Shown in pieces: positions 1,758 through 28,805 of a stretch of DNA of 38,455 nucleotides. A model generated the notes under the pieces. That model saw nothing but the letters and a program-made list of their open reading frames with translations, did not search any database and was not told the DNA's origin. The position numbers and the translations under genes are program-made. Numbering within the stretch: position 1 is the stretch's first letter; every line of letters begins with the position of its first letter. The stretch comes from a virus (Duplodnaviria > Heunggongvirae > Uroviricota > Caudoviricetes): IMG/VR virus record IMGVR_UViG_2713896790_000012. One strand, written 5' to 3'.

Positions 1758-2383
1758 AGGCATTTGCTGCATTTATCCTTCGTGATATCGGACGTCGGCT
1801 GGTCATATTCATCCGCGACAGCCGGACCATGATAACCGCACTCATCACCGCGATAGGTCCAGGTGCAGGTGTTGGCCAGCATGATGCGCCCCGGAAAAAC
1901 AGCACCATCCGTTTCCGTCGGTGTGGAGAGCACAAAGGAGGCACTGACCGCACTCAGTTCGCTGCACTGCTCGATGCGCCAGCGGCTGATCACCTCCTGC
2001 TCCGGATCGGCGTCGCTGTTTCCGTTGACGAAGTTCACCGCATCCAGAAAACGGGCGTAAACCTTACGCCTGACCACCGTTCCGCCGACCAGACTCTGCA
2101 GGTCTTCCGCCATCCCGGTGACCATGCCGTGCAGGTTAGAGACCGTCAGTGTCGGACGGGTAGCACTACCCTTACCGTTCAGTTCAAATCCCGTCCCCTG
2201 AATAGGGTATACCTGATACTGCCGCCCCTGCCAGGTGACCGGCTCACCTTTTTCGTTCTGCTCATTACAGAAAAAATAACGTTCACCACCGACCTCTGTC
2301 AGATCGATTTCCCAGAGCACCACCTGGGCTGACTGAGTAAGGCGTGTCGTCTCATGATGTGTTTCCTGTCGTATGTCCTGCAT
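1758..2383 (-). CDS. L: Minor tail protein L, 3' end lost in N gap
   Basis: [11 protein letters not shown]...VVLWEIDLTEVGGERYFFCNEQNEKGEPVTWQGRQYQ...TCTWTYRGDECGY...KDKCSKC matches lambda gpL from memory; coding continues into the 1708-1757 N run. Confidence 0.8.
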
Positions 2384-2721
2384 CAGATCACCACTTCGTC
2401 AAACTGACACGAAAAATCGGTATAGGTGATATGTTCTGTCGCTGACCACGTTCGACACACCACTCTGATTTTTCTGTTAATACCCGGCGGGCGCCAAAAA
2501 AAAGATTTATAGCCTCCATGCCGAGCCAGAAACAGTTCAAATGAATTACGTTCATTCGCCTCAACCCTGAAATCACAGGTAAAAACACGCAGAGAATGAT
2601 TAAGTCCGTTTGGGCTTCGTTGTTCATAACCATCGCCAAATCTTACAGTTTTTATCGATGGCTTATTTTCTGTTTTCATTCCATCCTCTGGTAACCAGTA
2701 AAATTCTTCCGTATTAGCCAC
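2383..2721 (-). CDS. M: Minor tail protein M
   Basis: 112-aa ORF between tape measure and L; ...[16 protein letters not shown]...FWRPP... resembles lambda gpM; gene order H-M-L-K-I-J preserved. Confidence 0.7.
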
Positions 2722-5700
2722 TTAACATTCCTCCATCACGTCGCATATTTAACAGAGCGCCCTGCACCCGCTGATCAACCATCCCCATAAGTGCTTTTAT
2801 TGCCTGAGGACCAATCTCTCCATTCTGGCCGTCATTTTGAATAGTGATTTGGTATACAGGGGCATAAGTAATATCTCTGCCTCCATTACCACTTTTACTA
2901 TTAATAGCTCTGACACCAAGAGAACCATCGGAAGTTCGCGTTAATGGCATAATAGCTTCCGGTCCAGCCTCACCAAAAACACCAGCTCCTTTTGCAAAAG
3001 CAAAAAATTGCGGGGAGTCATAAATACCGTTCGAATATGTACTCAATGACGGAGACTCATAAACACCGCCCTTTGCATTCGGAATAAATTTACTAATAGC
3101 ACTCCCGATAGTTCCTAAAATACCCCCAGAAGAACTGTTACTAATGCTGTCGAAAATCCCAGTAATTGAAGCCTTTAATGCAATTCGACTAAGATCTGAA
3201 ATCACGGAAGTAGCGAAAGAACGAAAATTTGCCTTGCCTGTCGTGACAAAATCACCTAGCGCATCGGTCATCCCATCAAACATCTGAGTCGTGGTTGATT
3301 TTATTTGCGCACCGATATCCTTAGTGTCATCCAGCCAGTTATTGAATCCCTGGGAGGCACCACTAATCCAGTCTCCTGCCTGAATATCGAGCTGCTCGTT
3401 TTTCTGGCTGACAATTTCTTTTTCTCGCTCCAGAGCATCATTCAGAGCCTGCATTTTCTCCTGAAAAACATGATTTGACATTCCACGGGATTTATCTGCA
3501 TAGTCACGTTCAAGTTGCAGACGCTGATTGTTATATTCACGTTCAATCCGCAGTAATTCCTGCTGGCGTTGCTGATTTTTATCGCCAACCCCATAACCAG
3601 CAATCTGAATATCATACCCCTGCTGACGATTATCAATCGAAGCCTGCAATGAATCACGCCATGCGGCTATTTCGGCGGATTCTTTGATTAGCCTGTTATT
3701 TTTTTCAATCGCAACATTTTTCTCCATCAACGCGGTTATTTCTTCCCGGTGTAAGAGAAGCGATTTCTGATCCTGGGTTAATTTCGATGACGGTCGTGAC
3801 TCCAGGTCGGCAATCTGCTGACGCCACTTAACCAGTTCCTGTTCAGAGGAACTTAATTTAACGGTCAATTCAGCTTGTGAACTTAGTAACGCATTCTGTT
3901 GATTCAGATGATCAATCATTCGTTGGGCAGCATCATCCGAATAACCTTTCGCCTTTGGTTGCTTTGGATCTTTATAACGCTCATTTATTTGAGCGATAAG
4001 ATTATTATATTCTTCCTTTGAATACTGATTCTTTAGCTTTTCCAGTTTTGCAAGTTCACTAGCTCTCTGCTGCTCCCGGGTCTGATATTGTTTTGAAAAA
4101 GCATCTGCTCTCTGTCTGAGTTCAATTCCTTCCTGTTGTCGCTTGTTGTAATCGTTTATTGATGAATTTAGTACGTCCTGAGCAATTTTTTCTGCTTGAA
4201 GTACGCCCAATTGCTGCTTTAATCGTGCCAGCTTTTTATTTTGAGCTCCGCCATCTCCAATGCCACCTAACCCGAAAACTCCGGGTCGGGTATTTTTTTC
4301 TATTTCATCAATTTGACGGAGAACATCTGAGATTTTTTGATCAAGGGAGGCCTCACGGCCAATATCCAGCATGGAATCCCATGCCCATTTTGCGGAGTCT
4401 GCGACAGCTTTCCATGCAGTCTCAAGATAACCAAGATTTTCTTTAATCTGGTTGGTGCGCTGGATCATTGAGGATGAGTATGCTTCTGTCGCAATGCGGG
4501 CGGCCTCCTGCTGGTTCCCTTCATCCTGTAGCGCCTTAATCTGGTTATAAGTCGCAAGTGTCAGAAAATGGTACTGATCATTAAGTTTTGATATAGCACT
4601 GACAGGATCCTTTGCAATTTCATTGAAGTCATTAACCAGTTGTTCGGTTGATATTCCTGTTACTTCGCTCGTTTTTACTATCGCTGTCGTCACTTGCTCC
4701 AGCGAACTGCTCGCTACCTTTCCCGAACGCACAAGCTGGTTTAATACTGCCGCCGCAGCGCCAGTTGTCGAATCAGCCGCATTCCCGGCACGTTGAGCTA
4801 TATCGGCCAATTGCCCGCTGGTTGTCCCCAACTGATTTCCGGTAAGAATAAGAGATTTATTAAATTCGTCCTGCTCCTGAGAGCCTTTATAGTAAGCCAG
4901 CCCTAAGACGCCAACGGCTGCTGCGGCCAGGGTAAAAGGATTAATTAATCCCAGCACATAAGAACCTACACCTTTGATCGCCGGGCCAATCCCACCGAAC
5001 ATATCTTTTAGCTGGCCGCCCTGCTGCATTAACACCATAAATGGCGACTGACCAGTGGACAACCCAACAACAATATCCGTCATTTGTGCAGGCAACATGC
5101 GCATAGCAAAAGCCGTTTGTTTTGCCGACATTCCGGTTTTGCTTAATTGCGATTGAGTAACCTCAAGCTCACTCCGCATAGCACGAAGTTTTCCAGAAAG
5201 CTCCTCATACATTTCAGGAGAAAGCATCCCCTTAGCTTTTGCTTCATTGAGCTGTTTCTGTTGTTCTACCAGACGATTAAAAGCAGTTCCGACAGGATCA
5301 AGTTGAGCAATCAGACGTTGCAAAGCAGCAACCTGTTCATCATGTGCTTTTGCTGCTTCTCGCTCTGCCTGAGCCTCTCCGGTAAGCTCTCGCCGTGTTT
5401 CCTGTATTTTTCGGCTATAATTCTCAAACTGAGAACCATTTATTTTCCCGGATGCAAACGCAGCATTAAGTTCATCCTGCTGTTGTTCAAGATTTCTTAG
5501 CGCCGCAGCCAGAGGGTCGATCTTGTCCAGCATTCTTTGAAAGACCTGAGCCTGCGCTTCCTGCTGGGCGGCAGCAAGTTTTCCGGCCTTCTCGGCTTCT
5601 CTCTGCGCTTGCGCAACCCCGCTCAATTCCTCTGTGGTTTCATTAAGTTTACGGACAAGAAATTCATATTCTTCTTTATCAATAAGCCCTTTATCGAAAA

Positions 5701-24909: not shown

Positions 24910-24959
24910 NNNNNNNNNNNNNNNNNNNNNNNNNNNNNNNNNNNNNNNNNNNNNNNNNN
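24910..24959. other. Assembly gap (50 N) covering the 5' end of the hok-like gene
   Basis: Run of N read directly. Confidence 0.99.
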
Positions 24960-27194: not shown

Positions 27195-27941
27195 TCACTT
27201 CGCAATTCCTGGCTGGACGACATTCGGACGCCAGCTCTCCCAGTTAAAATTCACCCATCGCCCGCCGTTCATGGTCATGCGATCCATAATCCGCTCGCCG
27301 AGCAATGTTTTCATGGCCTCATAGTTCAGGTTTGTCAGCATCCCCACGCTGCGCATCGACGCTGTCCGGCGATCAACAATCTGGTGCAGCACCACCTGCT
27401 CGTTTTTTGTCTCGCGCTGAATGCCAATTTCATCAAGAACCAGCAGATCCACTTGGCACAGTTCCCGCAAAAATTTTTCGCCTGATTGCCCGTCGTCATA
27501 GCTGGCGTGTAGAGCACTCATGACATCAGCCACGGTAACCACAATCACTGTCTGGCCATCTTTCAGCAGGCGATTCCCGATAGCCGCCGCCAGATGGTTT
27601 TTTCCGGTACCAGGTTTTCCGCTGAACGCAAAATTTGTACACCCGGTCATCAGTTCATCAGCGATAGATTTCGCCTGGTTCAACGCGTATCGCTGACCGT
27701 CGTTCTGCACCTGGTAATTCGCAAACGAGCATTTGCGGTGCAATGGCTGGATGCCAGAGCGATTCAGAATTTTTTCCACCCGCAACTGACGATTCTGACG
27801 GTTGATCTCCTCACAACGTTTCTGGCCTTCGGAAAGTTGCCACTCGCGCCACTCCGCTACCGTTTTGAATGGGGCGGTTACATGTGGCGGGGCCAGTCTG
27901 CGGATACGTTCAAGAATGCCGCCTGCCGCAATATTTTTCAT
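27195..27941 (-). CDS. ydaV: DnaC/IstB-like AAA+ replicative helicase loader
   Basis: Walker [18 protein letters not shown], Walker B LLVLDEIG; 248 aa; downstream of replication-organizer gene. Confidence 0.8.
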
Positions 27942-27947
27942 GGTCAG

Positions 27948-28805
27948 TTACCCCCTGAAGCCTGGCGGGATCGCACTATCCGGTAACGAGACGGTGTTAA
28001 CCTGTCGGAGTAACGTCTCAGGTAGAACACCTTTTGGCGCGAACAAGCCTTGGTATTCATTGGCGATGCTGTGTCGAATCACCTGCTCAGGTGAAAAACC
28101 CTGCTGGCGGAATTTTTCCAGCTCCCGTATCGCCCCGTTAGCGCCCTGCTCCGTTCGAATCGGTTTACGCAATGCCTGGCGAAATTCAACCCACTCACGC
28201 CAAAGCGAGACAGAAATCCAGTTCGGCAAAGCAATATCCAGAGGGTCAAACTTTTTGACACCTCGATTCCCCCGGGGGGGATTTAGGGGGGGATCTGTTT
28301 TTAGATCTTTATCTGTATCTTTATTAGTTGCCTTTGTGTTGGCATCATGTTCAAACACCACTTCAACATCTGTTTGAACACCTGTTAAATTTCTCTCTTG
28401 TTTTGTTTGAACATCTGCTTCCTTTCTGCTTCTTCTGGCCTGAACAGATGCTTTTCCTGCGGCTGATTTTTTGGTTAATTTTTCCCTGACTGATGCCAGA
28501 TCTTCCTCAATCCGAAGATGCACCCATTCCTCGCCGTTATCGCAAAAAAACTCCCGCAAGGATGGTTCAACATCAGCCCATCGCTCGTTAGTCAGACGGG
28601 CAATTTTTGCCAGCCTGTTTTTGGGTATTGGCTTTCCTGTTTGCCAGTAATTGAACATCAGCAACAAATACGCACCGTGCTCCTCTGCTGACAAATGCAT
28701 GGTGTCAGCCAAGTAATCAGCTATGTACAGTTGCATGTATGGTAATGCGGCCATAATTGCCCCGTATGATGCTGTCCGGTTGCTTAGAATAAGCACAAAC
28801 AGCAT
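27948..28805 (-). CDS. ydaU: Replication initiator / replisome-organizer protein (YdaU-like)
   Basis: 285 aa, position upstream of DnaC-like gene, central linker encoded by a repeat-rich DNA segment. Confidence 0.6.
   Translation of the reverse strand: MLFVLILSNRTASYGAIMAALPYMQLYIADYLADTMHLSAEEHGAYLLLMFNYWQTGKPIPKNRLAKIARLTNERWADVEPSLREFFCDNGEEWVHLRIEEDLASVREKLTKKSAAGKASVQARRSRKEADVQTKQERNLTGVQTDVEVVFEHDANTKATNKDTDKDLKTDPPLNPPRGNRGVKKFDPLDIALPNWISVSLWREWVEFRQALRKPIRTEQGANGAIRELEKFRQQGFSPEQVIRHSIANEYQGLFAPKGVLPETLLRQVNTVSLPDSAIPPGFRG
28266..28413. repeat. Repeat-dense block inside ydaU-like gene (candidate ori iterons)
   Basis: GGGGGGGAT twice 12 bp apart (28274-28294), GATCT/AGATCT and ATCT(G/T)T repeats, then TGTTCAAACA at 28348 with its reverse complement TGTTTGAACA at 28370 and 28404. 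Confidence 0.4.

Follow-up and report, generated by a model that had tools for sequence, protein, structure and literature searches.

The stretch of 38,455 nucleotides (nt) analysed here, record IMGVR_UViG_2713896790_000012 and referred to below as the window, contains a dense block of repeats at positions 28266-28413, inside a ydaU-like replication initiator gene. The block is probably the replication origin of a Rac-type prophage, organised like ori-lambda in gene O, and is probably oriJ. oriJ is reportedly the functional origin of the K-12 Rac prophage, said to have been described by Diaz and Pritchard in 1978 and by Potrykus et al. in 2000. The window is recognizable as a Rac-type E. coli prophage, and the initiator open reading frame (ORF; 27948-28805, minus strand, 285 codons) shares 99% identity with ydaU (b1359) of K-12 Rac; the repeat block itself differs from its K-12 counterpart by one base. 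A sequence-only reading of this DNA had placed a lambda-type origin in the linker-coding part of the initiator gene, and all the comparative tests that were run support this proposal at the level of sequence.

Anatomy of the repeat block

The block corresponds to codons 131-180 of the 285 and lies between the segments encoding the DUF1376 domain (residues 22-104) and the C-domain (residues ~175-285). All the elements that the sequence-only reading had listed for 28266-28413 are present at their positions. On the coding strand, box 1 is followed by box 2, a degenerate box 3, an inverted box 4, an A-rich stretch and a C-run element; numbered from the conserved ATG, the boxes occupy nt 342-407 of ydaU. 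The features of the gene are as follows.

ydaU-like initiator gene, 27948-28805, minus strand: DUF1376 N-domain, linker with the origin-like block, and a C-domain resembling the DnaT C-terminal domain (CTD)
Box 1, 28404-28417, minus strand: CAGATGTTCAAACA on the coding strand; core TGTT-CA-AACA, a 10-bp palindrome with a 2-nt centre
Box 2, 28371-28384, minus strand: CAGGTGTTCAAACA; 33 nt downstream of box 1
Degenerate box 3, 28361-28370, minus strand: GATGTTGAAG; abuts box 2, belongs to direct-repeat family D1 and fits the family core GTTGAA
Box 4, inverted copy, 28347-28357, plus strand: ATGTTCAAACA on the plus strand; inverted repeats I4 and I6
A-rich segment, candidate DNA-unwinding element, 28296-28347, minus strand: 52 nt with AGATCT and one GATC; encodes NTKATNKDTDKDLKT
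C-run element, 28266-28295, minus strand: GATCCCCCCCTAAATCCCCCCCGGGGGAAT; two 12-nt units and a CCCCCGGGGG palindrome, with the second GATC
Auxiliary box, family consensus, 28565-28571, plus strand: coding-strand sequence GTTGAAC; located at the conserved W..VE codons of the N-domain

All Rac boxes have the palindromic pattern TGTT-NN-AACA. The 10-mer TGTTCAAACA is found on the plus strand at 28348-28357 and its reverse complement TGTTTGAACA at 28371-28380 and 28404-28413; the three copies next to an AT-rich stretch, as had been claimed, are the only exact copies in the 38.5-kb window, and all of them fall within the block. The spacings of the array, which comprises three exact 10-bp palindromic boxes and one degenerate box, are 33 and 23 nt. 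Boxes 1 and 4 can pair as an 11-bp stem (z=-3.5 for the fold of the single-stranded DNA, ssDNA), and box 2 is invariant across 37 near-identical ydaU alleles.

The stretch 28296-28347 is 69% A+T and is A-rich on the coding strand. AGATCT occurs at 28303-28308, GATC at 28292-28295 and 28304-28307, and ATCTGT at 28293, 28311 and 28368. The AGATCT/ATCTGT sequences, earlier counted as repeats in their own right, are present, but fall within an A-rich segment that resembles the one in Gifsy-2. The C-run element reads C7-TAAAT-C7-G5 on the coding strand and is the right-hand boundary of the block; it contains GGGGGGGAT at 28274-28282 and 28286-28294, 12 nt apart.

Repeat density and duplex stability

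The null model consisted of 5000 synonymous recodings of ydaU with the protein sequence kept. Against it, a 10-mer that recurs three times with both strands counted has P<=0.0004, and the number of repeated 8-10-mer pairs in the block P<=0.003, which upholds the earlier statement that the density of repeats exceeds what coding would produce. Mononucleotide shuffles gave P<=0.002. The repeat analysis that had been suggested as a check placed the block level with one other stretch as the most repeat-dense 100 nt of the window: it scores 12 per 100 nt, against 3 for the 99th percentile of the window.

In the ydaS-ydaV operon the duplex is least stable over the 40-nt segment 28291-28330 (-43.3 kcal/mol, compared to a mean of -54.4 kcal/mol with a standard deviation of 4.1). 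In the 200-nt segment 28300-28499 the GC content is 0.38, and the AT skew, -0.435, is the strongest in the region.

Conservation in the DUF1376 family

Relatives returned by the first scans were only ~94-100% identical and could not be used for covariation. An exhaustive HMMER search gave 14,102 N-domain relatives, and the family scan, with one genome per species, comprised 80 loci and 70 full-length genes. Lack of conservation of the repeats in homologs had been named beforehand as a result that would speak against an origin; the architecture proved to be conserved across 70 species. The repeat score in the 70 genes peaks at gene nt 330-460, just after the N-domain, where means are ~3-7 compared to mostly <1 elsewhere. 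In this segment GTTSAAC reaches 8.7 times its density over the remainder of the gene; GTTSAAC boxes occur in all three reading frames and in both orientations. The boxes of the family are 9-10-bp palindromes, and adjacent ones are spaced 11, 22, 23, 33 or 34 nt apart, within 1 nt of a multiple of 11, in 28 of 30 cases.

The sequence of the box depends on the N-domain. Close relatives of the Rac N-domain have two to four copies of CGTTSAACG in the peak segment, with carriers in Citrobacter, Enterobacter, Kluyvera, Pantoea, Serratia, Rahnella, Pseudomonas, Propionivibrio and others, and distant subfamilies have other palindromes, e.g. AGCAWTGCT, AGCG-NN-CGCT or ATGCA-type boxes. Two or more GTTSAAC boxes are present in 21 of the 39 genes whose N-domain identity to Rac is at least 0.55, as against 4 of the 37 genes below this value (Fisher P=7e-5). 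GCAATGC boxes show the opposite trend with N-domain identity.

The family boxes are followed by (GATACA)n, in the form AATAAAGATACAGATACAGAT(C)TAAAAGA. Within these runs, in 21 genes, aspartate is encoded by GAT in 82 of 82 cases and threonine by ACA in 79 of 79; outside the runs the proportions are 37% and 15%. An element of the form C5-N2-4-C5(-G5) is found in 10 of 76 family genes, nine times directly after A/T-rich repeats. The codons of the auxiliary box are similarly fixed in 22 family genes, with GTT for valine in 20 of 22 (22% elsewhere) and GAA for glutamate in 20 of 22 (42% elsewhere). Since the repeats are frame-independent, phased and fixed at the codon level, protein coding does not explain them.

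The auxiliary cluster in the N-domain region (28565-28571 in the window; loci L097-L126) has the sequence CGTTGAAC, often in two copies 11 nt apart and with an inverted TTCAACG. It is located ~170 nt upstream of the main array, and Rac retains one box of it. A separate subgroup (L115, L117, L118, L120 and L122) loses DUF1376 similarity at about residue 90-96, and in three of its members the fused domain matches Pfam T5orf172/MUG113. At gene nt ~400-480 this subgroup has CTACGG/CCGTAG/AGCTACG repeats in place of GTTSAAC boxes.

Exchange of the two halves of the block

Mosaic E. coli alleles were found by a DNA search with the ydaU N-domain and linker. Three of them (L085, L087 and L088) match only as far as gene nt ~494-507. 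They retain the DUF1376 domain, the boxes and the A-rich stretch; beyond the junction they have a different DnaT-type C-domain, followed by a lambda-P-like loader, and lack the C-runs. The alternative C-domain of L085 (L085 1501-2571) matches Pfam DnaT at 3e-18. The reverse arrangement is found in phage vB_EcoS-673R7, in which the N-domain is unrelated and the position of the boxes is taken by other repeats (GTTACAAAAACG and GTAACGC/GCGTTAC palindromes), followed by an A/G-rich stretch, the C-run ATCTCCCCCTAAATCCCCC, a Rac-type C-domain and a DnaC-like loader. In the O gene of Gifsy-2, the N-domain is Phage_rep_O, about seven classical lambda-type iterons (ATCCCYGAAAACRGGGAT) occupy the position of the block, and an A-rich stretch, AGATCTAACCCCCTTTAATCCCCC and a Rac-type C-domain follow. 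In these three arrangements the inheritance of the boxes follows the N-domain, and that of the C-runs follows the C-domain and the loader. The repeat sequence thus co-varies with the initiator N-domain and the right half with the C-domain and loader, and such co-inheritance of the origin halves with the two domains is the known pattern for lambdoid O genes.

The GGGGGGGAT (G7AT) units had been regarded as origin repeats on a par with the palindromes. They are present, but as initiator-specific iterons they were rejected: they segregate with the C-domain, not with the N-domain. They belong with the C-domain and loader, as they are absent from mosaics with the same N-domain and present next to unrelated N-domains.

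Two kinds of disrupted allele were noted. In E. coli 95-3192 (L084 2011-2050) the 12-nt C-run unit CCCCCCCTAAAT is present three times instead of twice and one copy lacks a C, which shifts the frame and makes this ydaU a pseudogene; the homopolymeric C-run unit is slippage-prone. Two unrelated strains of E. coli (L086 ~1995-3300; L089 ~735-2000) have an element of the insertion sequence (IS) family IS3 within ydaU, at gene nt ~494-509. The insertion point is in the A-rich segment and coincides with the mosaic junctions.

The initiator protein and its loader

Residues 22-104 of YdaU match Pfam DUF1376; Phage_rep_O is not matched. The AlphaFold model of residues 18-130 (predicted local distance difference test score, pLDDT, of 94) has a winged helix followed by a long helix, and the predicted structure of the N-domain resembles origin-binding winged-helix domains. 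The linker encoded by the block is charged and poorly conserved. Over its last 111 residues YdaU is homologous to the C-terminal parts of the annotated O replication proteins of Gifsy-1 and Gifsy-2, Klebsiella phages, mEpX1 and N7.

The YdaU C-terminus also aligns with the DnaT CTD, with which it has the tail NTVS-PDS-IPPGFRG in common. The likeness to DnaT is based on a single-sequence match (1e-4) and on Pfam DnaT matches in relatives, where the domain is found in 17 of 69 DUF1376 proteins; with a four-sequence profile of the C-domain against the PDB, the DnaT match weakened to E=0.05 and was limited to the tail. The last ~19 residues of YdaU, RQVNTVSLPDSAIPPGFRG (27948-28040), are a near-copy of the C-terminal tail of the host DnaT, RDVNTVSEPDSQIPPGFRG.

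The start codon of ydaU is probably the ATG at 28754, because nearly all of the 150 best relatives begin with MAALPYMQ. The annotated ORF is probably 17 codons too long at its 5' end (28752-28805).

The gene next to ydaU encodes the loader:

ydaV, DnaC-like helicase loader, 27195-27941, minus strand: Pfam IstB_IS21 and Bac_DnaA

Against NCBIfam, YdaV matches the PRK12377 ATP-binding protein subfamily at 1e-152, above the cutoff, and the DnaC helicase-loader model at 1e-91, below the cutoff. YdaV would be the partner of the initiator C-domain. The order of genes in the module is a divergent repressor, a Cro/YdaS-like gene, the cII-like ydaT, the initiator and the DnaC-like loader, and it is this context that makes it a lambdoid replication module. 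A 2.4-kb module matching that of the window is present in 2,340 of 5,426 complete E. coli genomes, in which its genes carry the annotations ydaU, ydaV and ydaT.

The proposed mechanism of initiation is as follows. Dimers of the DUF1376 winged-helix N-domain of YdaU would bind the palindromic TGTT-NN-AACA boxes, namely the three exact boxes, the degenerate box and the auxiliary box upstream in the gene. The resulting nucleoprotein complex, together with transcription through the ydaS-ydaT-ydaU-ydaV operon, would destabilise the adjacent A-rich segment, and YdaU, through its DnaT-CTD-like C-domain, and the DnaC-like YdaV would then place the host DnaB on the opened strand. The C7/G5 element would serve as the GC-rich right-hand boundary of the origin, as part of the C-domain/loader module.

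Comparison with lambda and other replication systems

That an origin can lie within the gene for its initiator is textbook lambda biology. The block resembles ori-lambda in lying inside the initiator gene, between a DNA-binding N-domain and a loader-recruiting C-domain, and in its place within that gene (Rac boxes at nt 342-407, annotated lambda iterons at nt 349-433 of the O gene). In both cases there are repeated dyad-symmetric sites, in Rac predicted ones, for the initiator, an A-rich segment directly downstream, a mosaic junction at the known or putative origin and transcription from the early rightward operon. The likeness of the A-rich segments can be followed through Gifsy-2 as an intermediate: the Gifsy-2 A-rich segment scores 46 against the AT-rich region of the lambda ori (22 +/- 3.9 in shuffles), the Rac A-rich/C-run sequence scores 51 against Gifsy-2 (23 +/- 4.1), and in neither comparison did any of 2000 shuffles score as high. 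The position in the ORF, the dyad-symmetric phased array and the asymmetric A/T-rich segment downstream, as expected of an origin of the ori-lambda type, are all found in the block; the array of Rac has fewer sites and a less even spacing than that of lambda.

The differences concern mainly the proteins and their sites. The N-domain is DUF1376 in Rac and Phage_rep_O in lambda; with DUF1376 as the only match, the block would be expected to work in the manner of ori-lambda with an initiator of a different family. The 10-bp TGTT-NN-AACA boxes of Rac, three exact and one degenerate, stand against four 18-bp ATCCCTCAAAACGAGGGA iterons in lambda. C7-TAAAT-C7-G5 takes the place of the right-hand palindrome of lambda, the C-domain resembles DnaT, and a DnaC-like loader stands in for P.

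The O genes of Gifsy-1 and Gifsy-2 and of the phi80 type, each with a DnaC-like loader, share the right half with Rac. They have a homologous C-domain (48% identity over residues 175-285), an A-rich stretch with CCCCC-TTTAAT-CCCCC, and a DnaC-like loader downstream, and differ in having a Phage_rep_O N-domain and ~7 lambda-type iterons. From iteron plasmids with a winged-helix Rep (F, P1, RK2, pPS10, RepA_N), the putative Rac origin differs by its location inside the initiator gene and by the lack of nearby DnaA boxes, and DUF1376 is nearly absent from plasmids. With DnaT of the PriA-PriB-DnaT restart primosome, YdaU shares the C-terminal region that aligns with the CTD, which binds ssDNA in DnaT; it lacks the DnaT N-domain, and would be targeted by its own sequence-specific N-domain, not by PriA/PriB.

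Relation to oriJ and evidence against an origin

According to passages in PMC3945230 and in PMC11014345 (citing Potrykus 2000), Rac carries an active origin, oriJ. A nucleotide-level definition of oriJ was not found in the literature searchable here. The prophage type is the same as that of K-12 Rac and the block is identical apart from the one base, and the block is probably oriJ.

Several observations weigh against this assignment or against an origin in the block. A primer pair called oriJ (De Paepe et al., PMC3945230 supplement), the only oriJ-labelled primers found, amplifies 27530-27684 of the window. This 155-bp amplicon covers the Walker A region of ydaV and is not in ydaU; as the origin core it was rejected, since it has no repeats beyond chance, and it remains a caveat. 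No DnaA box (TTATCCACA, up to one mismatch) is present from 22700 to the end of the window; the window as a whole has 10 matches, which is at chance level. The arrangement of a DnaA-dependent origin of the oriC type, a DnaA-box cluster beside an unwinding element, is not found. Cumulative GC skew, which had been proposed as a check, gave no signal at the block: the curve turns at the divergent racR/ydaS promoter region, which reflects the orientation of the genes, not an origin, and the check is uninformative.

The array of Rac is also not an ideal member of its family. It has only three exact boxes, their spacing is less regular than in typical family members, and some alleles have a degenerate box 1 (TGTTCAAAAA in L084, TATTCAAAAA in L085); of these, L085 is apparently intact. 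Polymorphism among the 37 near-identical ydaU alleles (10 of 78 variable positions in the box region, 18 of 279 in the N-domain and 43 of 315 in the C-domain) gives no support to constraint on the boxes, the test being uninformative because the diversity of these alleles is too low. The direct alignment of the Rac and lambda A-rich segments has the same pattern as those through Gifsy-2, but is not significant alone (P=0.12). The family genes are related by descent, and the counts of boxes, spacings and codons are thus not fully independent. A role of DUF1376 as a plasmid Rep was rejected, as the domain occurs in 14 of 72,556 plasmid records, mostly megaplasmids.

Alternative explanations

The repeats might be a by-product of a low-complexity disordered linker (VQT..VQT, DTDKD, PPLNPP) that expands by replication slippage and has no function as DNA. 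The charged and poorly conserved linker encoded by the block would fit such an origin of the repeats, as would the slippage-prone 12-nt C-run unit, triplicated in L084, and box polymorphism that is not depleted. Slippage would not, however, place the family boxes in three reading frames at spacings of 11 or 22 nt, or fix the codons to GAT/ACA in 161 of 161 cases and to GTT GAA in 20 of 22 genes, and the synonymous recoding nulls were rejected. Furthermore, the type of box changes with the N-domain within one host, and one of the Rac boxes is inverted and hence cannot be a peptide repeat. Slippage without function is very unlikely. It is also unlikely, though less so, that the boxes are YdaU sites used for regulation (autoregulation, a transcriptional roadblock or copy control by handcuffing) and that the origin is elsewhere. 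Initiator binding sites in iteron plasmids often double as control sites, and the oriJ primers of PMC3945230 map to ydaV. Against this, the box is absent from the racR/ydaS promoter region and from the rest of the window, and the boxes always precede a readily melting A/T-rich segment that resembles the one in Gifsy-2, the A-rich part of which is in turn similar to the AT-rich region of the lambda ori. The ydaV amplicon, as said, has no excess of repeats, and the module has neither DnaA boxes nor another origin-like block.

A further possibility is that the A-rich and C-run sequences are mainly junctions for module exchange, which promote recombination and have no role in initiation. Mosaic junctions do cluster at gene nt 494-509, and IS3 elements have entered at the same place in two strains. 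In lambdoid phages, however, gene O has its junction at ori because each half of the origin co-evolves with a protein domain of its own; a junction at this point is a consequence of an origin rather than an alternative to one. The phased palindromic boxes and their covariation with the N-domain would also be left unexplained, and this reading is the most improbable of those considered. A replication origin organised like ori-lambda is accordingly the explanation that we prefer for the block.

Implications

With the origin in the block, oriJ, long known but poorly defined, would be pinned to ~150 bp that are open to direct test. DUF1376/YdaU would acquire a function, that of a winged-helix domain that binds origins, its predicted recognition sequences varying by subfamily, and there would be a reason for the clustering of mosaic junctions and IS insertions at one place in ydaU. 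The order of phased palindromic boxes, a (GATACA)n or A-rich tract and C-runs may serve as a signature for finding origins in the prophages of Proteobacteria, and the likeness of the C-domains to DnaT hints at the way in which these phages recruit the host helicase. The initiator family, the box sequences and the family-wide signature appear to be undescribed in the searchable literature.

A broader and much more tentative idea is that DUF1376 proteins, of which there are more than 14,000 at 50% clustering, are widespread, unrecognised phage origin-binding initiators that carry their own origin in their gene and fire it by means of DnaT-CTD-like C-domains. Were this so, the origin would consist of subfamily-specific 9-10-bp palindromic iterons with 11-bp phasing and a (GATACA)n or A-rich unwinding element constrained as DNA, often with a C5-N-C5-G5 boundary. 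The C-domain would form filaments on the melted A-rich strand and mark the site of DnaB loading for a DnaC-like or P-like loader, and origin-specific initiation would have been made from mimicry of the restart primosome.

Other features of the window

The stretch tied with the ydaU block for repeat density is at 16500-16600, in the ORF 15631-16725 (minus strand). It has five to six copies of (C)TGCGCA, ~11-14 nt apart and with T-tracts between them. It lies in the N-terminal coding part of the small terminase subunit (Pfam Terminase_2), beside a putative large terminase gene, and is a candidate pac site. Positions 24910-24959 are 50 consecutive N, either a masked stretch or an assembly gap.

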